Below, one piece after another: positions 13,742 through 23,744 of a stretch of DNA of 36,916 nucleotides. Under the pieces are notes generated by a model that was not told where the DNA came from, searched no databases, and saw nothing but the letters and a program-made list of their open reading frames with translations. Position numbers and translations under genes: made by a program. Every line of letters starts with the position of its first letter. The first letter of the stretch is position 1. Where the stretch lies: NCBI GenBank assembly GCA_041736305.1, contig JBGSTX010000222.1, positions 1 through 36,916 of the forward strand, written 5' to 3'. The stretch comes from Oligoflexus sp. (lineage in GTDB: Bacteria > Bdellovibrionota_B > Oligoflexia > Oligoflexales > Oligoflexaceae).

Positions 13742-14461
13742 CTAGAGCCGCTGGGTGTTGAGCGCACTCACGACGGGGATCTTGAGGACCTTTAGCTCAG
13801 AATTGGTGGTCACCTCTATGCTTTCAAACCAAGGTTTGCTCGGCACGGGCCCTTTCCAAGTGATACGGAGTTCCCAGGCATCCTCGACCGGTCGATAGCT
13901 CACATCGAAAGTATCCTTATTGTAGTCAACTTTCTCAATATGCAAACTTTGCTTAGATGCTCCCCTGATGAGGACAGTTGCGCTTCTTGAGCCGGCCTTT
14001 TTGCTCGCGAGGTTCATCTCGACCAGTGTCGGATGCCAGCTGAGAGTCCGAGCCACCTGAGCCTTGAGTCGCAGCACGATCGCGCTACCTTCCTGCTGGT
14101 TGGTGAGGATAGTGATGCTTTTGTTGAAGGGGCCGCTAAAGGCACTTGTGTCAACTTTGACGGAAAGCGTGCCTATATATCCTGCCTTGAGTACCTGCCC
14201 TGCTTTCAAAGATTGGCTGATGCAGCCACAGTCCTGATGTATCCCAAGAATAGTAACGTCGCCATCGCTGCTGATGCGAAATGGAAACTCAAAGTGGAGT
14301 TCATCGCCCTGAGCGACCCGACCTCGATCGAGCTGTTTCTGCTCCATTTCAAGACGGCCGATGGGAAAACCGAGCGCAGAAACGAGATTTTCCTCAATGC
14401 TTTCTGCCTTTAGCGACTGCGCACTGAAGAAGAGCATAATACCGACCAAGACTCGCTTCAT
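13742..14461 (-). CDS. Secreted DUF1573-like Ig-fold protein
   Basis: Signal peptide; FEFPF...ILGIHQDCGC...L..G..G.L.V.VDT..F.GPFNKSITI.TN pattern typical of DUF1573; GGAG RBS. Confidence 0.75.
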   Translation of the reverse strand: MKRVLVGIMLFFSAQSLKAESIEENLVSALGFPIGRLEMEQKQLDRGRVAQGDELHFEFPFRISSDGDVTILGIHQDCGCISQSLKAGQVLKAGYIGTLSVKVDTSAFSGPFNKSITILTNQQEGSAIVLRLKAQVARTLSWHPTLVEMNLASKKAGSRSATVLIRGASKQSLHIEKVDYNKDTFDVSYRPVEDAWELRITWKGPVPSKPWFESIEVTTNSELKVLKIPVVSALNTQRL

Positions 14462-14598
14462 AGTTAAGCTCCAACGAGAAAAAGATCCGACTGAGATCTC
14501 GTCTGCGTTTCGGCAGAAGCGGCTGCGACTTGCTAGGTAAAATTTGCACTCGAGACCTCCTCCGGCTGACCGATAGAGCCAGTCAGGGAGGTTTTGAG

Positions 14599-14979
14599 AT
14601 GGAAGGCTGGCTTGAATTTATTGAACAGGACCTGCTGGTCATCTTCAGTGGGCTCGAAGGACGCGACCTGGCTATTCCGGTTTGCAGTCTGGCGATGCTG
14701 ATGCTGCTGCTAGTTCCCTTGAAAAGCATCGACAGGCAGGATGTCATCTGCGGAATGATCTACGTGGTTTACTGCGTAGCGGCCGGAACAATATTTTTCT
14801 TTGCGATTCCAGGCGTGCAGGACGGCCTCACCGCGATCGGTTTGCATCTAGCTTTTACCTGTCTGCTAGGAGCTGTGGCTGCCTATCGCTGGTTCCACAG
14901 CACCAATGATTTTGTAATTAATCAGCGCGAGGACTCTGCAAGTCCCAAAGCTCAGGAGCCTTTACATGAGAAAAAATGA
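14599..14979 (+). CDS. Hypothetical membrane protein (about 3 TM)
   Basis: GGGAGG RBS before ATG 14599; three hydrophobic segments. Confidence 0.6.
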   Translation: MEGWLEFIEQDLLVIFSGLEGRDLAIPVCSLAMLMLLLVPLKSIDRQDVICGMIYVVYCVAAGTIFFFAIPGVQDGLTAIGLHLAFTCLLGAVAAYRWFHSTNDFVINQREDSASPKAQEPLHEKK

Positions 14980-15226
14980 TCATGATACCCGTCTTCTCAT
15001 CTATCGAAGCCGTCAGATCTCGCTCGCTTTTCTGGTAATTGCCGCCTTGATTACCTTCGCCGTCATCATCGTTCAGGCCCAAGTGAATGGGCTTGTATGG
15101 TGGCACCTCGTGCTGCCGCTCAGCGCTCTGGGCAGCGCTTTTTGCTTAGTTCCTAAAACTGAAGAATGGGAATATAAGCCTTGGCAAGGCAAGCCGCGTA
15201 AGGTTGAACAGAATTTTGATCGCTGA
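14966..15226 (+). CDS. Small hypothetical membrane protein (2 TM)
   Basis: AGGAG RBS; overlaps the previous gene; two hydrophobic segments, then EEWEYKPWQ. Confidence 0.6.
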   Translation: MRKNDHDTRLLIYRSRQISLAFLVIAALITFAVIIVQAQVNGLVWWHLVLPLSALGSAFCLVPKTEEWEYKPWQGKPRKVEQNFDR

Positions 15227-15235
15227 GCCTCGGGC

Positions 15236-15961
15236 TCAAATTCCTTTGAGCATAACTTTATCTTGCCAGAGGAATTTGCCTGCATCGGGGGCGTCGAGCG
15301 GTTCTGCACTTATATGGATTTCAGCCTCATGGCCCAAAGCGCCGCGAAAATCGACCAGATCGCCCTTGTTTTCCAGCCATTCGCCATCTGCTCCCAGTGG
15401 AGCATTCTGCAATATCCAAACGCGCTCAGCAGCTTTTTCGATACTCACATTTACATAGAGCTTTGCAGGTGAAGCCGTGCCGATTGCGGACGCTCCGGGA
15501 AGCACACAGGCGATTTTCATATAAGCGGGGAGCTGGGGATTTAGTAAAAGCGCGCCTTCGTTGTTGAGCTGGGGCGTGCTGCGATCGCTTTGAATCCACG
15601 AAACTTCACAGTTCAGCTCGGCATAGCCTACGCCCTTACTGACCATATTTCGATCTTCTTGGATCTGCAGCTTAGGAGGCTGAATAATAAACAGGGTCGC
15701 TGCTGCCGCCAAAAACGCCAGACCACCCTGATACATACGTCGATTCGCGAGACGCCGTGGTGTGCGTTGAAAGCGATCAAAAATAAAACTTGGTACGGCC
15801 CCATTCTGCTGTAGCAGCGCCTGAAGAGAGCTAGAAACCTGGACCTCGGCTTCATCCAATTCTTCTTCAGTTAGGCCATCCACCTTGGCTTCGGCTTCTC
15901 GCAGGAGCACCTTCAAACGGTCCCCTTCGGTCTCGCTTATCCTGTAAGTCTTTGTCATCAT
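15236..15961 (-). CDS. Single-pass membrane protein, putative anti-sigma factor (paralogue B)
   Basis: AAGGAG RBS; charged helical N-terminus, TM GGLAFLAAAATLFII, MVSKG, then a beta-rich domain with two Cys. Adjacent to the ECF sigma gene. Confidence 0.65.
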   Translation of the reverse strand: MMTKTYRISETEGDRLKVLLREAEAKVDGLTEEELDEAEVQVSSSLQALLQQNGAVPSFIFDRFQRTPRRLANRRMYQGGLAFLAAAATLFIIQPPKLQIQEDRNMVSKGVGYAELNCEVSWIQSDRSTPQLNNEGALLLNPQLPAYMKIACVLPGASAIGTASPAKLYVNVSIEKAAERVWILQNAPLGADGEWLENKGDLVDFRGALGHEAEIHISAEPLDAPDAGKFLWQDKVMLKGI

Positions 15962-16071
15962 GACGAAACTCCTTAAACCAGGAAGGCTGCAACCCCATGG
16001 CGACAGCGCTATCTTCTCGGTTTAAGGATGAGGTGTAGGCCAGAAATATTGCAGTAGGCACCCATTTTGGA

Positions 16072-16650
16072 TCAAGTAATTTCGATGCCTTTTTCTTCAA
16101 CCAACCGAACCATGGCCTGACTGACAATCAGTCGAAACCGTCGTAGATGAGAAAGGACGGTATTCTGGTTCATATTGAGTGCGTCTGAAATTTCCTTAAT
16201 GGATTTTTCTTCGAGATAAAAAAGCTTAGCTACTGTTGCTCGCGGCTCACCCTCATGCACTTCGATCAGCTGACGGAGTAGCACCAGAGAATGCTCGAAC
16301 TGCAGGCTCGCAAAATCATCTTCGGCTACGAGTATGACTTCGCGATCAGCACCGTCCTCATCGTCACCCGCGCTATCGGTCGCTGCAACGCTCACGCTGC
16401 GCTTGGTCTTACGGATCTCATTGAGACAGCGATTGCGGGCGATCGTCATCAGCCACCCGCTGAATGCGGCCTGTTCTTTCAGGCTGCCTATGTTCTGCCA
16501 GGCCTGCACAAAAATATCTTGAATCAAGTCGTCAGCGCCAGCGTCGTAGAACCTATAGCGAGTCACGACAGCTCGGACCGCCTGGTAGTGGCGCCGATAG
16601 AGAGTTTCAAAATCCAAAGGTAGGCTCTCTTTCTTCACCTGCTTGATCAA
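16072..16650 (-). CDS. ECF-family RNA polymerase sigma-70 factor
   Basis: Region 2: ADDLIQDIFVQAW...FSGWLMTIARNRCLNEIRK. Region 4: LFYLEEKSIKEISDALNMNQNTVLSHLRR. Likely TTG start at 16650 overlaps the upstream TGA (TTGA). Confidence 0.92.
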   Translation of the reverse strand: MIKQVKKESLPLDFETLYRRHYQAVRAVVTRYRFYDAGADDLIQDIFVQAWQNIGSLKEQAAFSGWLMTIARNRCLNEIRKTKRSVSVAATDSAGDDEDGADREVILVAEDDFASLQFEHSLVLLRQLIEVHEGEPRATVAKLFYLEEKSIKEISDALNMNQNTVLSHLRRFRLIVSQAMVRLVEEKGIEIT

Positions 16651-17510
16651 CTGTTTGTCCCCTTTACTGCGATACTGTCGAACCAAAGCACAGGCGATTT
16701 TCCTAGGATTATTTCGGCTTCAGATTCAGTTCGCGGCAAGGCGGTTTCTGAAGAAATTTCTCGTTCGCTTAGTAGACCACTAATCACCCATGGCGATTGA
16801 TATTGCAAGACGAAACTAGCAAGCTTCCCCTCGTGTAAGATTCCTTTAGCATCTCCTGCTGTCACCGGAATATTTCTTAAACTCAGCGGCTGCGGACCTT
16901 CGATCGAAACATTTAGAAAACCCGACCGGTCACAGCGAACACTCAGCTGAAATGCAGTCCCAGTAGGGCCTTCGTAACCCATCCCATCGACTGATGGAAC
17001 GATCGTACCACCACCTTTGACGGTTTGCAGAAGAGAAATTTCACAACGTGCTGGCAGCGATGAGCTATTTCCTTTACTCACCATGAGCAATTCATCATCG
17101 CTTGCTACCTGCTGAGGTTTTTGCAAAGCGGGAATGATAACGAACAAGGCGAGCGCGGCTGCAGCCATCGCCCCAGCCCAAGTCATCCAGTTTTTCGAAC
17201 TCGGTTTTTTATGTAAGGGCATAACGTTGCTTGGTGTTTGTAAGTCTTTCTGCTCATCAGCCTCGATGGGATGGACGCGCCTTTCAATGGCTTTCCATTG
17301 CCGTTGCCGATCCTCTTGATCTGGACTGAGAGTCGATCTGCCGGATTTAGCGCCAGCGATACGTTTCAGCTTCTGCTGCACGTCGCGCTCGAGCATCTCC
17401 AGCTCGGCATCCGAGATATTGGCGGCGTCGAGACGCTTCTCTTCTTCGAGCAGCAGGCTCTTTAATCGAGCCATATCTTCGTCTTTAATCGTAAATTTTT
17501 TGTCGTTCAC
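16647..17510 (-). CDS. Single-pass membrane protein, putative anti-sigma factor (paralogue A)
   Basis: Charged helical N-terminus, TM WAGAMAAAALALFVIIP, MVSKG, then a beta-rich domain with two Cys. Its stop overlaps the likely ECF sigma start. Confidence 0.65.
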   Translation of the reverse strand: MNDKKFTIKDEDMARLKSLLLEEEKRLDAANISDAELEMLERDVQQKLKRIAGAKSGRSTLSPDQEDRQRQWKAIERRVHPIEADEQKDLQTPSNVMPLHKKPSSKNWMTWAGAMAAAALALFVIIPALQKPQQVASDDELLMVSKGNSSSLPARCEISLLQTVKGGGTIVPSVDGMGYEGPTGTAFQLSVRCDRSGFLNVSIEGPQPLSLRNIPVTAGDAKGILHEGKLASFVLQYQSPWVISGLLSEREISSETALPRTESEAEIILGKSPVLWFDSIAVKGTNS

Positions 17511-17567
17511 GTTGATCCCATCTTCTCGTAGGGTCGCTGTTGACCGGAAAGTGTTGACCGTCTCTTT

Positions 17568-19304
17568 TTACCAAAATGTTCCTGCGTAGACAGCAAGTGT
17601 TGGTGAAATTAGGACAGATCCCTGCTCTTCACTAAAGTTTCGCACCAGGTCGAGCCGTGCCTCTGTACCGACGCGCAAGAGGTGATAGGCCCAGGTTGTA
17701 TCGACTCCAGCCCCAAATCCAAGGCTAGGTTGCAGCACAGATCGATTGCGGGCGGTAAATGCTTCTTCCTCTAGCTCGCGTTTGATGTAGAGAGCCCCTG
17801 CTCCCGCTAACCAGCGCGCTTCGGTACGAACGCTACGGTCAGCCCGTGTCAAAATATCCAGGGGGTAGCGGCGACTGAGACCAACCAGGGCGCTGACCAT
17901 GCTGCGCTTCTGCTTGAACTTGCGAAAGCTTCCTTCGTCACCTTTAACTTCGATCGACTCATTTTGCTCGGGATAGAGCGTCAGCTCCAACGCGAGGTCG
18001 TGTACCCACACAGCTTCCTCGAGGGTGTAGCGAAGGTCGATACCCTGCGCACTTTTCGGTGCATAGCCGTCCTGAACATCACCGTCAATGAATTGCTGCA
18101 CCCGTAGACCCATCGTCAAACTATGAGGGAGTCTCGGCAAGAGATAGTTCGCTATCGAATACTCACGGCCAGCCTGGAAATTGACGACGCGATCGGTGAG
18201 AATTTTCTGCGAATCGGGATCGCGCACGGTAAGGCGCACATCGCCCTCCGGTACGGTAAGACCTTTGGTAACCGAACCGTATTCCTTGCCGTCGATGGCA
18301 ACCACGAGTTTGGAGAAGCGGTCCATCAGCGAGAAGAGGCTAGCTCCCGCTGAGCGTTTTTTCAGCTCACCTGAGACGATGATAGGATCAGAGCCGAGCA
18401 GTTCCATGATTGCCGAAGGACGCTGACGCCCTTGGGTGTACGCGTAGGTCGCTTGGCTTGCGTAAGCATGGGCTTCCGTGATGGAGACCGCACCGTCACC
18501 GTTGCGATCCTGCTTAAAGCCTTCGATGAGAAAGTGGGTGTAAACATCATTTCCAAGCCGCTCATCTTCGAGGGCAGGTTCACGCCAGCCGCTAGCGGTG
18601 AGGATGATCGAACCTTCTGATCGTTCTTGAATAGGCTCTTCGAAGTAAGGCGCCTTCAGCTGCGCAAGAGCACGCTTCATTTCGGGCGTGAGCACCGATT
18701 TGCCGACCCCTGAGTGGCAAAAGGCGAGGATCAGTACCTTCTTCCGCGACTTTAGTTTTTGAAATAGATCGACCAGCTCATCGTAGTCGACGGCGGTATT
18801 CTTCATATTTTGGGGATCGGTTCCGCTCATGATGATGTAGCGACCGACTTTGCCGTCTTCCTTGTAGGCAACCGTGCCGTGAGTCGACAGGTAAACGACG
18901 ACGGTATCTTCCTCGTTCCGATTGTCTTGATCGATTCTCTCGAAGGCTCGTTTCACATCGCTTGGCATTACGGATTTTTCACCATCGATGAGCAGCTCTC
19001 CACCATCGAAGGTATGAGCGTCTTCGCGGAAGTAGCGATAAACATCTTCAGCATCTTTTCGAGCGTAGCGGAGTTGGCGCCAAAGCGGGTTTTCAAACTG
19101 GCCGACACCGATGGAAAGCACAAACTTTTTAGGTCGTAGACTTTCGACGACGGCATTTTCAGGAGCCGCCTCTAGCGACCATGGCCTGAGACTGAAGCCA
19201 AACGCGAGGAGGCAAAGCAGAGGGATAATGCGGAGAGATTTATACACGGCTAAACTCCTGAGTGACAGCCGCGCCAACCTATCCGTAAATCCCCTTGAGG
19301 TCAA
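17568..19304 (-). CDS. Exported caspase-family (peptidase C14-like) protease with a predicted C-terminal outer-membrane beta-barrel
   Basis: Signal-like N-terminus; VLSIGV..F.....LRYARKDAE; catalytic His in VVVYLSTHG and Cys in VLILAFCHSG; ILTAS, VYTHFLIEG and Q.P motifs. The C-terminus has amphipathic strands ending AVYAGTFW. Confidence 0.85.
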   Translation of the reverse strand: MTSRGFTDRLARLSLRSLAVYKSLRIIPLLCLLAFGFSLRPWSLEAAPENAVVESLRPKKFVLSIGVGQFENPLWRQLRYARKDAEDVYRYFREDAHTFDGGELLIDGEKSVMPSDVKRAFERIDQDNRNEEDTVVVYLSTHGTVAYKEDGKVGRYIIMSGTDPQNMKNTAVDYDELVDLFQKLKSRKKVLILAFCHSGVGKSVLTPEMKRALAQLKAPYFEEPIQERSEGSIILTASGWREPALEDERLGNDVYTHFLIEGFKQDRNGDGAVSITEAHAYASQATYAYTQGRQRPSAIMELLGSDPIIVSGELKKRSAGASLFSLMDRFSKLVVAIDGKEYGSVTKGLTVPEGDVRLTVRDPDSQKILTDRVVNFQAGREYSIANYLLPRLPHSLTMGLRVQQFIDGDVQDGYAPKSAQGIDLRYTLEEAVWVHDLALELTLYPEQNESIEVKGDEGSFRKFKQKRSMVSALVGLSRRYPLDILTRADRSVRTEARWLAGAGALYIKRELEEEAFTARNRSVLQPSLGFGAGVDTTWAYHLLRVGTEARLDLVRNFSEEQGSVLISPTLAVYAGTFW

Positions 19305-19390
19305 TGCCTTTCACCTCTCCTGGCAAGCGTCAAAGCTTCTCAGCTAAAGGCATTCAGGCATTTGCCAGCGAGTACGATAATCTCTGCATA

Positions 19391-22141
19391 CTAGTCATTT
19401 TTACGCAGCAGAGGCAGCTTATAGACTTCCTCCGGATATTGCCCGATGGTGCCCGAGCCTATATTGCGCCGGATATCCCCGTAAGCTTCGGAGGCTATCC
19501 AGTGTTCGAGTTCCCAACGCAGACTGAGGGGGCTGCGCATTTTTTCGAGACTGGAGAGAGCCAAACTGTGATCCTGGAGCATGGAGGTCGTAAGCTTGGC
19601 TAAAAAACGCGCAAAGACCAACTGGGCCTTTTCATCATCGAAGAGTCGAGACAGCTGCGCAAGCTCGTACCAGGACTTTCTTTGCTGAGGACTGAGCGCT
19701 CGCAACCAGCGTCCGACTTTGCCCGGCATGGGCAGCTCGGCGCCACGTGACATCCGTGGCACGATCGCCTCTATCTGATGGTGGAGGAGACTCAACTGCC
19801 AATCCCAGGCGGTGATACCCAATCTCTGGGCCAAGGCCATGAAGAGAAGGGCCCACTTGGTATCGAGCAGGCTGCCGAAGAAGGGCGGCTTTTTCTGCCA
19901 GAGCCCTTTCGATTGCGCACTGTACATTTTCTTCGGCTGCGGCAGCCAAGTCGCGCGTTCGAGAGCGTTGTGTATCTCGCTTTCGCTCTCGGTCAAGCCA
20001 CGACCTTTCTTTACGGGCAGGAGGTGCTGATTGAGGGTAGCGAGAAGCTCGGGTATCAGCGGCCCGATGCACACGAGACCTTCGACCAGCTTTTTCTCGT
20101 TGCCTTCGAAGGTACTCAAGATCCTTTTAATGTGTACTTCTTGCAGATCGACGAGAGAGAACTCCCGTTTTTTCTCGCCGCAGATGCCCCAATGCCTTTC
20201 GAGCCCTTCGTTCATCACCTGCCTGACGCGAGCCAGCGTTGCGATGCGCCAGCACTGGTCGTAGCGTTTCAATTGAAAGCTGAGCTGCCAGAGCCGGGCC
20301 AGATCGCTATTGATGTAGTGGGTGAGGTAAGCCTTCCGCTCGAGGACCAGACTCTCAAGCTGCGCCTGTCCCCTCTCGCGGGTGAGATTCTCTAAACCTT
20401 CTATAACCGTCCGACTCGGTTGCACGACCTGCTGCAAATAACTGCTGACGTCCGCTTCGGTGATTTCACGCGTCTCGCCGACCAAGCGCACGATCAGCAG
20501 GAGTCTTTGCCGCTGTCCTTCGTCAAGTCTTTCCGTCTTGCTGATCCAGTGCAGCAGGCCTCGATGCAGTTTGCTCCAGCTGATGGCGAGCGGCTCTTGG
20601 CTATGGGCTTCGGCTTCCCCATAGAGCCGTCGGGCATCCCAGAGCAGCATCTCATCGGCTCCCAGATTCCAAGTAAACGCGTGTACTTTAGCGATAGCCT
20701 GCCAGGTCCAGTTGCGCAGAGGATCGCCAAAGTCGTGCTCTTCGACAGCGTGCCAGATGGCATGATCGTAAGCAGGACGGTTGAACTGAGTCGCTTGCAT
20801 CTGAAAGAGATGGAGGATGTTAGGGAGCAGATACTCGAGCTGCTGGTACTGGAGCAGAACTTCAGCCAGCGACTGCCAAGCTTCTACTGTCTCGGGAAAC
20901 CACTGCATGGGCGACTTCAGCCACTCATTGAGGGCGGCACGATCTTTGGGAGCCCCCGCTTCAAAACGCTGGATGCGGAGCAAGAAAGAATCGAGCAAAC
21001 CGATCCGGCCGCGCCAGTCGAGCTCTCTTTGCATCTTCTGCCCGTATGTGCAGAGACCATCCTGATCGCGCTCCACCCGGATATCGAGCAGAATATCGAG
21101 GGCGCGCTGAAACTCAGGAGCCGTGCGCGGAATGTTTTCGAGCAGTTGAATGGCCAGAGACTCGTCGCGCTCGCGCAAGGCAACTTCGCCCAACATGAGA
21201 GACATACTGCTGTCGCTGAGTTTTACCTGGCCTCCGTATTGCTTCAGAGCCATCCAAATTTCTTGATCGTGTCGACGAAAGTACTTGTACGCCGCCTCGC
21301 TCTGATCGGCTTCGATATAGGACCAGCAGCAGTAGAGACGTTCGATAGGCAGGAGCCGCAGCGTCAGATCCTTGCGAAAGAGCAGTCCATCGAGCACCGC
21401 GCGCCTTTTAGCCTGCCAGAGCTTAGAGACGACATGGACCCGAATATCAGCCGTGATCTGCAGATAAAACGCGACCGAATGTTTGGCCAGACTACCCAGA
21501 ACTTCTTCGAGTTCAGAGGCGGAGCCGTAGAGAAAGGCGAGTTCGCTCAGGCGTGCGGCTACATCGGGACGCGGAAAATTTTCGTAGAGGTTCCAGGCTT
21601 CCGTGCGGAACGAAGCCCAGCTCTGCTGGGTTTCAATCTTTTTGCGCAGTTTAAGTTCGGCTTCGAGGGCCTGATCCAGTCGTTCTTGGGGGGCAGCTAG
21701 CGGCGCAGTTTCGGCGACTTTAGCCCGAAGAGGCTCGGCATTCGTTTCAGCTCGGCGCTTAGCTTCCGCGTTTTCTAAGTTCTCGACGGGAGGAAGCGGC
21801 TGTACTGCAAGTTTATCCTGCAGATGTTCTGCCGGATAAGCCAGTAGCTCAGCGAGGGGTATCGATATGTTTTCCTCAGCAGAGCTCACAGCCGTAGTCA
21901 GGGACTCATCCCGCTGGGCACCTTTCCGGAAGCTAAACTCATCATTTAACTTTACTGGCGCACCAATACTAGCCGGAGATCTGGCGGTGGTCTGGAGGAG
22001 CGAGGCTTTGAGATCGGAAACTGTTTCCGGCTTGAGGCCAAGTTTTTCAGCCCAGCGCAAAAGGCGCAAGTTCTGAGGAAGGTCGCTCTGCATCGCATCC
22101 TGCGCCTTTTCAGGCCCTTCACCGCCCTTGTCCTTCTCCAT
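19391..22141 (-). CDS. Large (about 916 aa) alpha-helical hypothetical protein, TPR/solenoid-like
   Basis: Long ORF with GGAGGG RBS before ATG 22141 (MEKDKGG); Leu/Trp-rich helical composition; no catalytic motif recognised. Confidence 0.75.
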   Translation of the reverse strand: MEKDKGGEGPEKAQDAMQSDLPQNLRLLRWAEKLGLKPETVSDLKASLLQTTARSPASIGAPVKLNDEFSFRKGAQRDESLTTAVSSAEENISIPLAELLAYPAEHLQDKLAVQPLPPVENLENAEAKRRAETNAEPLRAKVAETAPLAAPQERLDQALEAELKLRKKIETQQSWASFRTEAWNLYENFPRPDVAARLSELAFLYGSASELEEVLGSLAKHSVAFYLQITADIRVHVVSKLWQAKRRAVLDGLLFRKDLTLRLLPIERLYCCWSYIEADQSEAAYKYFRRHDQEIWMALKQYGGQVKLSDSSMSLMLGEVALRERDESLAIQLLENIPRTAPEFQRALDILLDIRVERDQDGLCTYGQKMQRELDWRGRIGLLDSFLLRIQRFEAGAPKDRAALNEWLKSPMQWFPETVEAWQSLAEVLLQYQQLEYLLPNILHLFQMQATQFNRPAYDHAIWHAVEEHDFGDPLRNWTWQAIAKVHAFTWNLGADEMLLWDARRLYGEAEAHSQEPLAISWSKLHRGLLHWISKTERLDEGQRQRLLLIVRLVGETREITEADVSSYLQQVVQPSRTVIEGLENLTRERGQAQLESLVLERKAYLTHYINSDLARLWQLSFQLKRYDQCWRIATLARVRQVMNEGLERHWGICGEKKREFSLVDLQEVHIKRILSTFEGNEKKLVEGLVCIGPLIPELLATLNQHLLPVKKGRGLTESESEIHNALERATWLPQPKKMYSAQSKGLWQKKPPFFGSLLDTKWALLFMALAQRLGITAWDWQLSLLHHQIEAIVPRMSRGAELPMPGKVGRWLRALSPQQRKSWYELAQLSRLFDDEKAQLVFARFLAKLTTSMLQDHSLALSSLEKMRSPLSLRWELEHWIASEAYGDIRRNIGSGTIGQYPEEVYKLPLLRKND

Positions 22142-22295
22142 GCACCCTCCTGCCGACTCGCTATTTAGGATCATTTTAGCACACTCCCAAGATTTCTTAG
22201 CCGTCCTTCTGGCCAAGAGGCCTTGACCTTTAATGGGCCCTCTTATATGTCTCGGTCAGTCGTGAAGATAAATACAAGTAAGCGGACAAATTGAC

Positions 22296-23744
22296 ATGTT
22301 TCAACTGTTAGCGCTCGATCTCGATGGCAGCATCGTTGATCTTCTCGAACGAGAGTCGAAGGAGTTGGGCGGAACTGTAAGTACGGCGAGCAATCACTAC
22401 GAGCTCGTAGTCAAATGCCAAGAGTGTCGCTACGATGCCCTCTTTATCGATCTCGATCATCCGCGCTCGGGAACTGTTGAAGAAATCGAACAGTTTCGCA
22501 TGATCTCACCTCAGCTTCGTTCCTTTGTCGTCACTTCGCTACCGCAGTGGGAGCAGGCCGTCCTAGCCATCAGGTCGGGTGCTGAAGACTACATGGCTAA
22601 ACCTCTGAATCCAGAAAAGCTGCGGGCGATTCTGCAGACTCTGCAGCGCAGTCCTCTGCATCGGCCCGAGACGGGCAGTCTAGAATTTCAGAAGTCCAAG
22701 CGCATTATTGGGCGTTCGGCTGCGATCCGCAAAGTTTACGATCTCATTCAGAAGCTTGCCCGCGTCGACACCTCAGTGCTTATTCGAGGGGAAAGCGGTA
22801 CGGGTAAGGAGTTGGTTGCTCAGGCTCTGCACTACAACTCCGTGCGCCGCCAAGGGCCTTTCGTCGCCGTCAACTGCGGCGCCATTCCTGAGAACCTGAT
22901 CGAGAGCGAACTCTTCGGCTACGAGAAAGGCACCTTCACCGGTGCTGATAAGAAGCGTCTCGGCAAATTTCAGTTTGCTAATGGGGGTTCGATTTTTCTC
23001 GACGAAATCGGCGACGTTTCGCCCCAGATGCAGGTCAAGCTCCTGCGCGTGCTGCAGGAGAGGAAGATCACTCCGGTCGGTGGCAATCAGGAGATTCCGG
23101 TCGACGTCCGGATTATTTCCGCCACCAACCGCAATCTTGAAAAGATGATGCAGGAAGGCAAGTTGCGCTCCGATCTCTACTATCGTCTCAACGTTATGCC
23201 GATTCCTCTGCCTCCGCTTCGAGCTCGTCAGGAAGATATCGAGGACCTGGCTAAGTTCATGATAGAGAAATTCAACAAGCTCCACGGACGCGGCATCAAA
23301 AAGCTCAGTGCTGATGCACGGGACGCTTTGATTCACTACGACTGGCCAGGCAATATCCGCGAATTGGAAAACGTCATCGAGCACGCCTTTATCATCGAGG
23401 GTAGCGACGTGATTCATTCCGATTCGCTGCCACCGCACATGGTTCAGCAGGTGGGCCAGAGCGAAAGCTCAGGAGCTCCCCTGTCGCAGATAGTCGCGAG
23501 TGAAAAACTGGACCAATCTATCGATGCCGAGCTCAAGCAGATCGAGCAGCTGCTGCCGGACGACAACAATTCTTTGAAGTATCCCGAACTCAAAGAGCAG
23601 TTTGAAAAAGAATTCATCAAGCGCGCCCTCAAAGCTTTCAACGGTCGCATCAATCAGACCGCTGAGCAAACGCAGATGACCAAGGTCACTCTCCTCCGTA
23701 AGCTTGAGAAGTACAACATCAACCCCAAAGAGTTCCAGCACTGA
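22296..23744 (+). CDS. Sigma-54-dependent response regulator (NtrC/AtoC family: REC-AAA+-HTH)
   Basis: Receiver residues (FIDLD, VVT, AKP); GESGTGKE; ESELFG.EKGTFTGA; FLDEIG; RSDLYYRLNV; WPGNIREL; Fis-type HTH. Confidence 0.95.
   Translation: MFQLLALDLDGSIVDLLERESKELGGTVSTASNHYELVVKCQECRYDALFIDLDHPRSGTVEEIEQFRMISPQLRSFVVTSLPQWEQAVLAIRSGAEDYMAKPLNPEKLRAILQTLQRSPLHRPETGSLEFQKSKRIIGRSAAIRKVYDLIQKLARVDTSVLIRGESGTGKELVAQALHYNSVRRQGPFVAVNCGAIPENLIESELFGYEKGTFTGADKKRLGKFQFANGGSIFLDEIGDVSPQMQVKLLRVLQERKITPVGGNQEIPVDVRIISATNRNLEKMMQEGKLRSDLYYRLNVMPIPLPPLRARQEDIEDLAKFMIEKFNKLHGRGIKKLSADARDALIHYDWPGNIRELENVIEHAFIIEGSDVIHSDSLPPHMVQQVGQSESSGAPLSQIVASEKLDQSIDAELKQIEQLLPDDNNSLKYPELKEQFEKEFIKRALKAFNGRINQTAEQTQMTKVTLLRKLEKYNINPKEFQH

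Follow-up and report, generated by a model that had tools for sequence, protein, structure and literature searches.

What does a caspase-type protease that carries a predicted outer-membrane barrel do next to a sigma factor of the extracytoplasmic function (ECF) type and two single-pass membrane proteins? The question is raised by a cluster of four open reading frames (ORFs) at positions 15236-19304 of contig JBGSTX010000222.1 from Oligoflexus sp. (assembly GCA_041736305.1), a stretch of 36,916 nucleotides (nt) referred to hereafter as the window. All four ORFs are co-directional, in the order caspase, protein A, ECF sigma, protein B (Table 1), as the initial annotation, made from the DNA alone, had described them; a correction to it is that they lie on the minus strand. 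Our answer is graded. The caspase-barrel protein, the sigma factor, and a single-pass protein form a trio that is highly probably coupled functionally in some way. Judged from sequence and predicted structure, it is quite possible, rather than probable, that they constitute an envelope-to-cytoplasm signalling module in which the outer-membrane caspase is a candidate site-1 protease acting on the anti-sigma factors.

Co-occurrence across genomes had been set beforehand as a test of the cluster. Among the best 80 of 202 related places in contigs taken from one genome per species, 13 loci display the caspase-A-sigma order of the window, 51 display the order sigma-X-caspase, X being a single-pass protein of about 260-300 residues, and one contains a divergent sigma/anti-sigma pair. 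Three loci have no sigma gene despite at least 2 kb of sequence on both flanks, six have a caspase gene cut by a contig end with sigma and X upstream, and six are not evaluable. An ECF sigma gene is found within 2 kb of the caspase gene, together with a single-pass protein, in 65 of the 68 evaluable loci. B follows sigma in most of the 13 caspase-A-sigma loci; it is missing from L009, and the divergent B of L012 is found by the B profile only (E 1e-4). The sigma-X-caspase loci are mostly from Myxococcota (Anaeromyxobacter, Corallococcus, Myxococcus, Archangium, and others), which bears out the caspase, sigma, and membrane-protein neighbourhoods mentioned for myxobacteria in the initial annotation; five originate from metagenome-assembled genomes (MAGs) that bear the label Gammaproteobacteria or Chromatiaceae, and Oligoflexales contribute several as second copies. 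Of 131 genomes of the phylum, 37 encode the caspase-barrel and 17 encode A-type proteins, directly beside the caspase gene in all 17; the 114 others encode no A-type protein. In the sigma-X-caspase loci no conserved fourth gene surrounds the trio, the largest neighbour cluster comprising 4 of 46. Several genomes harbour more than one copy: Corallococcus coralloides possesses two sigma-X-caspase modules, and Oligoflexus tunisiensis three caspase copies each with its own sigma (L006, L026, and L094) and one without. The latter (L096:5744-7408) is a fourth caspase-barrel copy with no sigma nearby, which follows the gene of an 858-residue secreted protein. A low-GC (guanine-cytosine) sub-clade, represented by MAGs labelled Oligoflexia or Bacteriovoracaceae, also encodes the caspase-barrel without any ECF sigma (L018:4305-6095, L019:6965-8698, L020:6884-8611, and L021:4154-5803). 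Its neighbours there are a lipoprotein-like ORF of about 1130-1185 residues, a lipoprotein of about 206-212 residues, and an ORF of 475-487 residues that is response-regulator-like by its N-terminus; they may represent a different signalling partner for the same protease.

The protease ORF is assigned to Pfam Peptidase_C14 (PF00656, 30.1 bits for a cut-off of 21.4, residues 60-297 of the 578-residue ORF) and remains below the cut-off of NCBIfam NF047832 (caspase, EACC1-associated type; 69.8 versus 140 bits). The initial annotation extended the cluster to 19304, the TTG of the open frame. The true start is probably GTG 19247, giving a protein of 559 residues, because TTG 19304 opens a conserved -35-like hexamer that is followed by GGAG and the GTG; the public gene call also comprises 559 residues. 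In this numbering, a hydrophobic N-terminus, folded into a signal-peptide-like helix in the AlphaFold2 model, precedes the C14 caspase domain (residues 36-296), an immunoglobulin (Ig)-like β-sandwich (residues ~300-365), and the barrel (residues 375-559). A search of a protein collection returns 102 relatives (E ≤0.001, among 8000 scored candidates), all of about 520-590 residues and all from Oligoflexus/Pseudobacteriovorax and Myxococcota. The catalytic dyad, His123 in SxHGT and Cys177 in C[HYF]SG, is invariant in 18 of 18 aligned diverse homologues from two phyla, and the window caspase is the only C14 peptidase found in its genome. Regarding the C-terminal part, the AlphaFold2 model (predicted local distance difference test, pLDDT, 80) exhibits eight long strands, which DSSP delineates between residues 375 and 558 with pLDDT values mostly of 74-97 in the whole-protein model. 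Foldseek matches this part with Ail from Y. pestis (3qra, E 3.4e-7, TM-score 0.62 on the target), and it is predicted to form an eight-stranded outer-membrane barrel of the Ail/OmpX type. The window chain terminates in GTFW, and F or W is the last or second-to-last residue in 17 of the 18 aligned chains (10 W, 6 F, and 1 F-R), the remaining one ending in ALSL. The candidate export signal, the intact dyad, the strand-rich C-terminus, and the terminal aromatic residue that had been read from the sequence are all recovered. In barrels of the OmpX/Ail type both termini face the periplasm; since the caspase domain is N-terminal to such a barrel, it should be periplasmic, hanging from the inner face of the outer membrane. 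One Pseudobacteriovorax MAG (L013:6989-8709; G058:C56:208235-209353) has its type-1 caspase gene split into two ORFs, with one TAA within the match, next to intact A and sigma genes; this may be a pseudogene or an assembly error.

Structural comparison of the caspase domain with VIA-align returns the MALT1 paracaspase (Z 22.2, root-mean-square deviation (rmsd) 3.0, 213 residues aligned), the Arabidopsis metacaspase 4 AtMC4 (Z 22.1, rmsd 4.2, 235 aligned), GSU0716 (Z 20.9, rmsd 2.9, 216 aligned), and the animal caspases 3, 7, and 9 (Z about 20). The top matches are Arg/Lys-specific enzymes, but the caspases follow within about 2 Z units. A basic P1 residue is the hallmark of meta-, ortho-, and paracaspases, and an aspartate that of caspases. 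The available text of one report likewise states that orthocaspases cleave after basic residues (PMC6426788). The caspase domain also contains an EF-hand-like loop, DRNGDGAVSITE, of which D247, N249, D251, G252, and E258 are invariant in 18 of 18 homologues. Pfam EF-hand_1 scores it below threshold (E 0.033, 14.2 bits for a cut-off of 25.4), and we take it to fit the DxNxDGxVxxxE consensus of EF-hands. An invariant C-H-S-G-x-G-K-S motif is observed at the catalytic cysteine, and Lys198 falls within a linker modelled with low confidence, residues 179-182 and 198-211 having pLDDT values under 50. Calcium control of the caspase and autoprocessing after a lysine are possibilities only.

Proteins A and B share a common layout. 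A is made up of three cytoplasmic helices (residues 10-79), a transmembrane (TM) helix (residues 109-129), the pair K146-G147, and a periplasmic Ig-like β-sandwich modelled by AlphaFold2 with pLDDT above 90. Cys156 and Cys193 are conserved in the periplasmic domain, and K146-G147 is invariant in 14 of 14 orthologues. B comprises the N-terminal helical motif, a TM helix, K109-G110, and a periplasmic domain with Cys118 and Cys152. Pairwise BLASTP between A and B is not significant (E 0.64), and profile comparison with hhalign of 14 A and 9 B orthologues reports a probability of 99.7% (E 3e-27, 225 columns). By their profiles, A and B are real paralogs, and this part of the initial proposal of two paralogous anti-sigmas stands. 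Their common features are the N-terminal helical motif RLxxLLxEEExxxDAxSDxEL, a single TM helix, two conserved cysteines, and an invariant Lys-Gly about 10-17 residues past the TM helix.

The second part of that proposal, the anti-sigma function, is best approached through X. In the X proteins, H30, C35, and C38, which form the HxxxCxxC anti-sigma motif, are invariant (21 of 21). Pfam zf-HC2 is matched by 5 of these 21 proteins (best E 0.0041), and the X profile finds the anti-sigma DdvA as its best match in the PDB (E 0.0045), followed by RslA (E 0.081). The TM-plus-periplasmic part of A is homologous to that of X (hhalign probability 91%, E 9.3e-7, 188 columns). The alignment of the two profiles begins just before the TM helix, and the cytoplasmic domains differ. 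Comparison of the B and X profiles reports a probability of 32%, and no homology of the A/B N-terminal motif to the zinc domain of X is detected. In all three families, the K-G pair that follows the TM helix counts among the few invariant columns (A 14/14, B 9/9, X 21/21 for K and at least 90% for G). The short X' proteins of second-copy modules in Oligoflexales and Silvanigrellaceae also exhibit K-[GS] at this place (5/5). The periplasmic domains of A, B, and X are only about 150 residues long and Ig-like. Foldseek returns no match for the fold of A at E ≤0.001, and VIA-align reports generic Ig-like domains (PKD, macroglobulin, CsgC; best Z 7.4, rmsd 3.2, 90 aligned). In the Protein Atlas, the A ectodomain is nearest to unnamed Myxococcota clusters (0.92), and a profile comparison finds no homology of the anti-sigma periplasmic domain to any part of the caspase protein (probability below 1%). 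A search of a set of 5.8 billion proteins with the X profile returns 27 proteins, all unannotated, one of which bears the source name 'transmembrane anti-sigma factor'. DUF4384 (PF14326) is matched below threshold by 2 of the 21 X proteins (L035, E 4.6e-5, 23.9 bits for a cut-off of 27; L025, E 0.023) and by neither A nor B of the window; a remote relationship of X to DUF4384 is possible.

Prediction of a complex between sigma and residues 1-100 of A yields a score of 0.45. Of 157 solved complexes, 116 attain this mark, as do 2 of 215 mismatches; values up to 0.60 are those of only 18 of the 157 solved complexes and of both passing mismatches. The best of three controls scores 0.00, the runs agree on at least 53% of the contacts, and the pLDDT of the partner is at least 54. 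A and B as anti-sigmas of the adjoining ECF sigma are only indirectly supported, by the homology with X, the cytoplasmic helices, and the junction of the A and sigma genes, and weakly by this complex prediction.

At this junction the TTGA overlap noted in the initial annotation is present, the TGA stop of A occupying 16647-16649 and the TTG of the sigma frame 16650-16648. Orthologous loci keep it equally tight, with a 4-nt overlap or a gap of at most 10 nt. Because the abutting arrangement of A stop and sigma start is maintained in these loci, TTG 16650 is most likely the sigma start, and the junction is a translational-coupling overlap. The sigma protein is assigned Sigma70_r2 (E 1.5e-18) and, slightly under the cut-off of 25.7 bits, Sigma70_r4_2 (E 3.7e-5, 23.7 bits). 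TIGR02937 is matched with 80.1 bits (cut-off 42.9), only the sigma-2 and sigma-4 regions are seen, and no named ECF subgroup reaches its cut-off. It is 58-82% identical to 12 orthologues, and it forms reciprocal best hits with the caspase-linked sigma of C. coralloides (1e-17 / 6.6e-18), the next hit in its own genome being at 8.8e-4. A quick tree of 83 sigmas requires 5 label changes for caspase linkage, as compared with a mean of 9.7 after shuffling (none of 500 shuffles is as low), and contains an all-linked clade of 53. In the same tree three unlinked sigma paralogs from O. tunisiensis are sister to the window sigma clade. These paralogs (L084:5811-6371, L085:6035-6694, and L086:5891-6529) are 38-46% identical to the window sigma and have neither a caspase nor an A/B/X-type partner. 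Two secreted proteins with cysteines are encoded ahead of L084 and look, by eye only, like the DUF4360-type regulon candidate described below.

The cluster contains two candidate promoters. The element before the caspase gene is conserved as TTGACx-17-(A/G)TA(A/G)(A/G)T in the four closest aligned loci (L003 and L005-L007). Right after its -10-like hexamer, at 19264-19276 of the minus strand, the sequence TTGGCGCGG is conserved in the five closest loci and could be an operator or the transcript start region. A simple promoter and terminator scan of 14900-22500 reports 1 promoter-like site, versus 3.7 expected from shuffles, and misses this caspase promoter candidate. The spacer between sigma and B contains another element: in 9 of 9 aligned orthologous loci, TGCAATAT is followed after 16-17 nt by TC(C/T)T, with an invariant GCAAT core. 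The bipartite motif TGCAATAT-N15-18-TC(C/T)T occurs seven times in the window genome, always outside rough gene calls, and four of the seven copies lie 30-200 nt upstream of an ORF on the same strand, as compared with 3 of 94 for the 8-mer alone. The six copies besides that before B are at G000:C232:28163(+), C324:1986(-), C217:22564(+), C146:1794(-), C16:473(+), and C106:58(+). Downstream of them are a DUF4360 secreted protein (C232), a 162-residue secreted protein (C324), a 135-residue protein (C146), and, after about 450 nt, a lipoprotein with a Peptidase_M15_4 domain (C217); the C16 and C106 copies have no clear downstream ORF.

In five related genomes with the module, the bipartite pattern occurs 11-27 times, versus 1-5 times for a reversed-pattern control. 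Many copies end in CGTC(C/T)T, which is the usual look of an ECF -10 element. The strict form TGCAATAT-N14-17-GTCYT is found at 40 sites, versus 3 for the control, in five genomes with the module, and at 8 sites, versus 3, in five relatives without the A-type module. Across these ten related genomes this suggestive relation is a correlation, not a test. ORFs begin 40-110 nt downstream of most sampled sites and encode mainly secreted proteins and lipoproteins, examples being a DUF4360 protein, a Peptidase_M15_4 lipoprotein, a Bax1-I family membrane protein, and DUF4423/HTH (helix-turn-helix) proteins. Since the motif is located inside the cluster of the window sigma, and its genome contains no other sigma of this clade, we infer that it may be recognised by the ECF sigma of this locus. 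The presence of the conserved ECF-type motif before B suggests that B would be a sigma-induced feedback inhibitor. In myxobacteria, the TGCAAT motif is absent upstream of the sigma genes, and the AT-rich 7-mers enriched there were discarded, as they belong to the start of the divergent neighbour gene. The sigma-X-caspase operons of Myxococcaceae and Archangiaceae display a conserved GTGAAC-like element between this neighbour and the sigma gene, about 60-70 nt before the latter (L050, L056, L060, L064, L069-L071, and L073), which could be an ECF -35 for sigma autoregulation.

The genomic setting is that of a housekeeping region. The window encodes a pstSCAB-like transporter, aspS, ffh, a MiaB-type enzyme, a sigma-54 activator, ruvC, hemB, dnaJ, panB, uvrA, and lepA. 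It contains no CRISPR (clustered regularly interspaced short palindromic repeats) or defence context, in line with the CRISPR-independent circuit proposed in the initial annotation. PADLOC assigns no defence-system membership and reports marginal matches only (the caspase model with E 2.5e-4 and 18.4 bits, the rest being spurious). An RseP-like M50 protease is encoded elsewhere in the genome (PF02163, E 1.2e-61, G000:C345:11892-13478).

Parts of this arrangement resemble known systems. FecA/FecR/FecI, which consists of an outer-membrane protein, a single-pass anti-sigma, and an ECF sigma, is a trans-envelope relay. FecA itself, a TonB-dependent transporter of 22 strands, has a signalling domain at its N-terminus and lacks a protease, whereas the window barrel has eight strands and carries a protease. 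The RseA/DegS/RseP system of E. coli sigma E has in common with the window a single-pass anti-sigma, its cleavage at site 1 in the periplasm close to the membrane (here proposed), and an encoded M50 site-2 protease. Its sensing also involves a feature of outer-membrane proteins, as would that of the window module. DegS, however, is an inner-membrane serine protease activated by C-terminal peptides of unassembled porins, and not a cysteine protease built as an outer-membrane barrel; the window, in addition, has two paralogous candidate anti-sigmas and no RseB homologue. Craspase (Cas7-11, Csx29, Csx30, Csx31, and RpoE) similarly pairs a caspase-fold protease with a sigma-sequestering protein, which craspase cleaves. 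According to the accessible text of a preprint on type III-E CRISPR, Csx30, the protein that holds an ECF-like sigma, is cleaved by Csx29, and DUF4384 constitutes one group of Csx30 C-terminal domains and is often fused to protease domains (bioRxiv 10.1101/2022.08.17.504292); available text of another article places DUF4384 in orthocaspases as well (PMC7475262). Unlike craspase, which is cytoplasmic, RNA-guided, and of the TPR-CHAT type, the window protease is a predicted periplasmic C14 enzyme outside any CRISPR context, and its link with DUF4384 is weak (2/21).

The closest studied mechanistic analogue is DdvA/DdvS. As far as the accessible text of the 2024 article goes, DdvA, a zinc anti-sigma, is fused to a periplasmic TPR-CHAT module, proposed to self-cleave at site 1 before RseP acts (PMC11506125), a site-1 step that is itself a hypothesis. 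Both systems combine an ECF sigma, a single-pass anti-sigma, and a periplasmic caspase-fold His/Cys protease module proposed to act at site 1 before RseP, and DdvA, the best PDB match of the X proteins, has a three-helix cytoplasmic anti-sigma domain like that of A. They differ in that the CHAT protease of DdvA is fused to the anti-sigma and, in the text available, thought to cut in trans within a dimer, whereas a separate barrel-anchored C14 protease is found here, next to an anti-sigma with only a small Ig-like domain. From the same text, DdvA controls a CBASS (cyclic-oligonucleotide-based antiphage signalling system)-CRISPR island, in contrast with the housekeeping genes around the window locus. 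ECF54 is also reported with CHAT-domain proteins in its context, in the available portion of the source (PMC8999054).

The gene neighbourhood itself is already in print. In the accessible text of Asplund-Samuelsson et al. (2012, PMC3501461), four of the five metacaspases of Myxococcus xanthus DK 1622 are in operons with sigma-70-family factors, and the same structure is mentioned for Anaeromyxobacter, Haliangium, Sorangium, Ralstonia, and Fibrobacter. What that text contains is an operon listing, with no barrel, anti-sigma, ECF assignment, mechanism, or Oligoflexia. These operons probably belong to the family of loci described here; M. xanthus DK 1622 is not represented by any record among the 80 loci. 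Literature on a mechanism for caspase-barrel/ECF pairs was not found, in agreement with the initial annotation, which knew of none; the operon (PMC3501461) and the idea of a periplasmic caspase-fold site-1 protease (PMC11506125) are the precedents seen in the texts available. A named ECF group with this context may exist in the supplement of the ECF re-classification (PMC7826278); in its main text, in the bioRxiv version as available, the word 'caspase' occurs 0 times. The novel elements of the present locus are a C14 protease that is a separate, barrel-anchored protein, the paralogous non-zinc proteins A and B, the rearranged gene order of Oligoflexales, and the candidate promoter and regulon.

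If these elements are assembled into a signalling pathway, A, translationally coupled to sigma, would in the resting state use its cytoplasmic domain of three helices to keep the sigma at the inner membrane. An envelope signal would activate the caspase or bring it within reach, and the invariant EF-hand-like loop may bind calcium. The caspase would then cut the anti-sigma, either in its periplasmic Ig-like domain or next to the membrane, with the invariant Lys-Gly some 15 residues beyond the membrane as a candidate site, and the genome-encoded RseP-type site-2 protease would remove the stub and release the sigma. The freed sigma would read TGCAATAT-N16/17-(G)TC(C/T)T promoters, one of which would drive B as a sigma-induced second anti-sigma, providing negative feedback. 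The scheme is compatible with all of the data. The analysis itself shows which genes are present, the predicted folds, the paralogy of A and B, a linkage that spans phyla, and a promoter motif that exists and is enriched; sigma binding by A and B, cleavage by the caspase and its site, the part played by calcium, and the assignment of the motif to this sigma are all steps that we infer.

A more specific version, in which the module would be a spatial-separation sensor of outer-membrane integrity, is distinctly doubtful in our view. A correctly inserted barrel would keep the caspase at the outer membrane, so that it could not touch the short ectodomains of the anti-sigmas at the inner membrane. 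The protease would reach A only upon barrel-assembly failure, when the unassembled caspase-barrel stays in the periplasm and cuts A, or upon envelope collapse or the entry of calcium that engages the EF-hand-like loop. The regulon turned on by the released sigma would be small and made up of secreted proteins, lipoproteins, and a cell-wall peptidase, and B would be induced as well, as a decoy or reset anti-sigma. If this were true, a single outer-membrane protein would report the stress and also act as the site-1 protease, a pairing so far undescribed.

Several results weigh against casting A and B as anti-sigmas and the caspase as their protease. The family searches that confirm Peptidase_C14 and the ECF sigma, as initially annotated, return no Pfam or NCBIfam match for A or B. 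A PDB sequence search with the A profile finds nothing, and the zinc anti-sigma motif HxxxCxxC is absent from both proteins in the alignments of their orthologues. In the AlphaFold2 model, the K-G pair of A ends the first predicted periplasmic β-strand rather than sitting in a free linker, and because of this position the pair may be structural and not a cleavage site. PDB sequence searches with the caspase family profile or the caspase domain alone match no solved caspase from which a P1 preference could be read. The caspase gene appears to be under a sigma-70-like and not an ECF promoter, though this would fit a regulator. The 3 of 68 evaluable loci and the one O. tunisiensis copy in which the caspase-barrel occurs without sigma imply that the protease can have a sigma-independent role. 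With respect to linkage, the survey covers the best 80 of the 202 related places, and a single origin is neither shown nor excluded by the quick sigma tree, at least 3 of its 5 changes being forced by supported branches. Synteny among close Oligoflexaceae reaches unrelated neighbours too, for which reason conservation within the family is weak evidence and the cross-phylum data carry the argument.

The last point could be pushed as far as regarding the cluster as inherited synteny without functional coupling, the Oligoflexaceae neighbours on both sides (a 941-residue ORF, two small membrane-protein ORFs, and a DUF1573 gene) being conserved as well. This is very unlikely, as the trio is kept in another gene order, in other neighbourhoods, in several copies per genome, and across phyla, and as A-type genes are never away from the caspase in 131 genomes. 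A and B might instead be membrane proteins that serve the caspase as substrates, adaptors, or chaperones and merely stand beside an ECF sigma with regulation of its own. Such a role would account for the lack of any anti-sigma family match, for an N-terminal motif unlike the zinc domain of X, and for the close sigma paralogs of O. tunisiensis that do without any A/B/X-type partner. It is, nonetheless, quite improbable: the A stop and the sigma start overlap or abut in all orthologues, which is the usual sigma/anti-sigma arrangement, the model of A consists of three cytoplasmic helices followed by a TM helix, and X, at the same position beside an orthologous sigma, contains the canonical HxxxCxxC, with DdvA and RslA as PDB matches.

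The caspase-barrel, for its part, could be a co-transcribed output or accessory effector, for instance in envelope remodelling or cell death, acting on other substrates, with A and B as ordinary anti-sigmas that respond to something else and a linkage that reflects co-regulation rather than cleavage. In loci of the common sigma-X-caspase order the protease gene comes last, as regulated targets often do. It also occurs without sigma, beside large lipoproteins and a response-regulator-like gene (L018, L019, and L021) or an 858-residue secreted protein (L096), and the accessible text of the 2012 survey discussed these operons in a cell-death context (PMC3501461). This alternative, far from negligible, is nevertheless doubtful, as the window caspase is the first gene behind a sigma-70-like promoter, with the ECF-type motif preceding B and not the caspase, and as the periplasmic domain of the anti-sigma is conserved from A to X across phyla with its sigma-binding end exchanged. 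Another proposal retains the contact without the cut: the caspase-barrel would be a non-proteolytic or self-processing partner that binds the anti-sigma ectodomain in the manner of FecA and FecR, or the Ig-like domain of the anti-sigma would regulate or inhibit the protease. Signalling from an outer-membrane protein to a single-pass anti-sigma is an established design, and DUF4384, found below threshold in two X proteins, is often fused to protease domains and occurs in orthocaspases, as would suit a part in binding or regulating a protease. The invariance of the dyad in 18 of 18 homologues from two phyla, however, argues that catalysis matters, the barrel has eight strands and no visible signalling domain, unlike a 22-strand TonB-dependent transducer, and the DUF4384 link amounts to 2 sub-threshold matches in 21. 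We consider this proposal unlikely. A direct relation of the caspase with the anti-sigmas, as in the site-1 protease reading, is favoured because the dyad is invariant, the periplasmic domain is constant, and each caspase copy comes with its own sigma and anti-sigma; a periplasmic domain conserved from A to X with an exchanged sigma-binding end is what would be expected if that domain works with the caspase.

The surroundings of the four genes are conserved to a lesser depth. The 941-residue ORF precedes the caspase gene in 12 of 14 Oligoflexales loci, the remaining 2 ending at a contig edge, and is found neither in the sigma-X-caspase loci nor in Myxococcota. It has no Pfam or NCBIfam match and no signal peptide, and its Protein Atlas neighbours are unnamed or TPR-like. 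The caspase promoter candidate appears to separate it from the caspase gene, and it is probably outside the module. On the other side, two small membrane-protein ORFs, convergent to B (14530-14979, plus strand, 149 residues; 14966-15226, plus strand, 86 residues), and a DUF1573 gene (13742-14461, minus strand) keep their synteny in most Oligoflexales loci; neither of the small ORFs matches a family above threshold.

Table 1. Coordinates of the genes, protein motifs, and candidate promoters of the caspase-barrel/ECF sigma locus in the window.
Feature	Position	Strand	Remarks
941-residue ORF	19391-22216	minus	directly upstream of the caspase gene; syntenic
Sigma-70-like promoter candidate before the caspase gene (TTGACC, 16 nt, ATAGGT)	19277-19304	minus	conserved in orthologues
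Caspase-barrel gene	17568-19247	minus	559 residues from GTG 19247; open frame extends to TTG 19304 (578-residue ORF)
Catalytic His123 codon (STHGT)	18879-18881	minus	invariant 18/18
Catalytic Cys177 codon (FCHSG)	18717-18719	minus	invariant 18/18
EF-hand-like loop DRNGDGAVSITE, residues 247-258, inside the caspase domain	18474-18509	minus	alignment of 18
Protein A gene	16647-17510	minus	287 residues; candidate anti-sigma
ECF sigma gene	16072-16650	minus	192 residues from the TTG in the TTGA overlap; open frame from 16686
Candidate ECF-type promoter before B (TGCAATAT, 17 nt, TCCT)	16025-16053	minus	conserved in sigma-B spacers
Protein B gene	15236-15961	minus	241 residues; A paralog

ECF sigmas are a main means of envelope sensing, yet the site-1 protease and the signal are known for few groups. 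In the present case a whole ECF family of predatory and social bacteria, in Myxococcota and Oligoflexia, is tied to a caspase-type protease of predicted outer-membrane location, and the system is directly testable, because the myxobacteria with the sigma-X-caspase operon are genetically tractable and the promoter motif offers a ready reporter. Should this protease prove to cut the anti-sigma, it would be the first site-1 protease known to be anchored in the outer membrane, and would represent an in-trans, genetically separable version of the step hypothesised for DdvA. It would also give bacterial caspase homologues a concrete role in signalling rather than in cell death.

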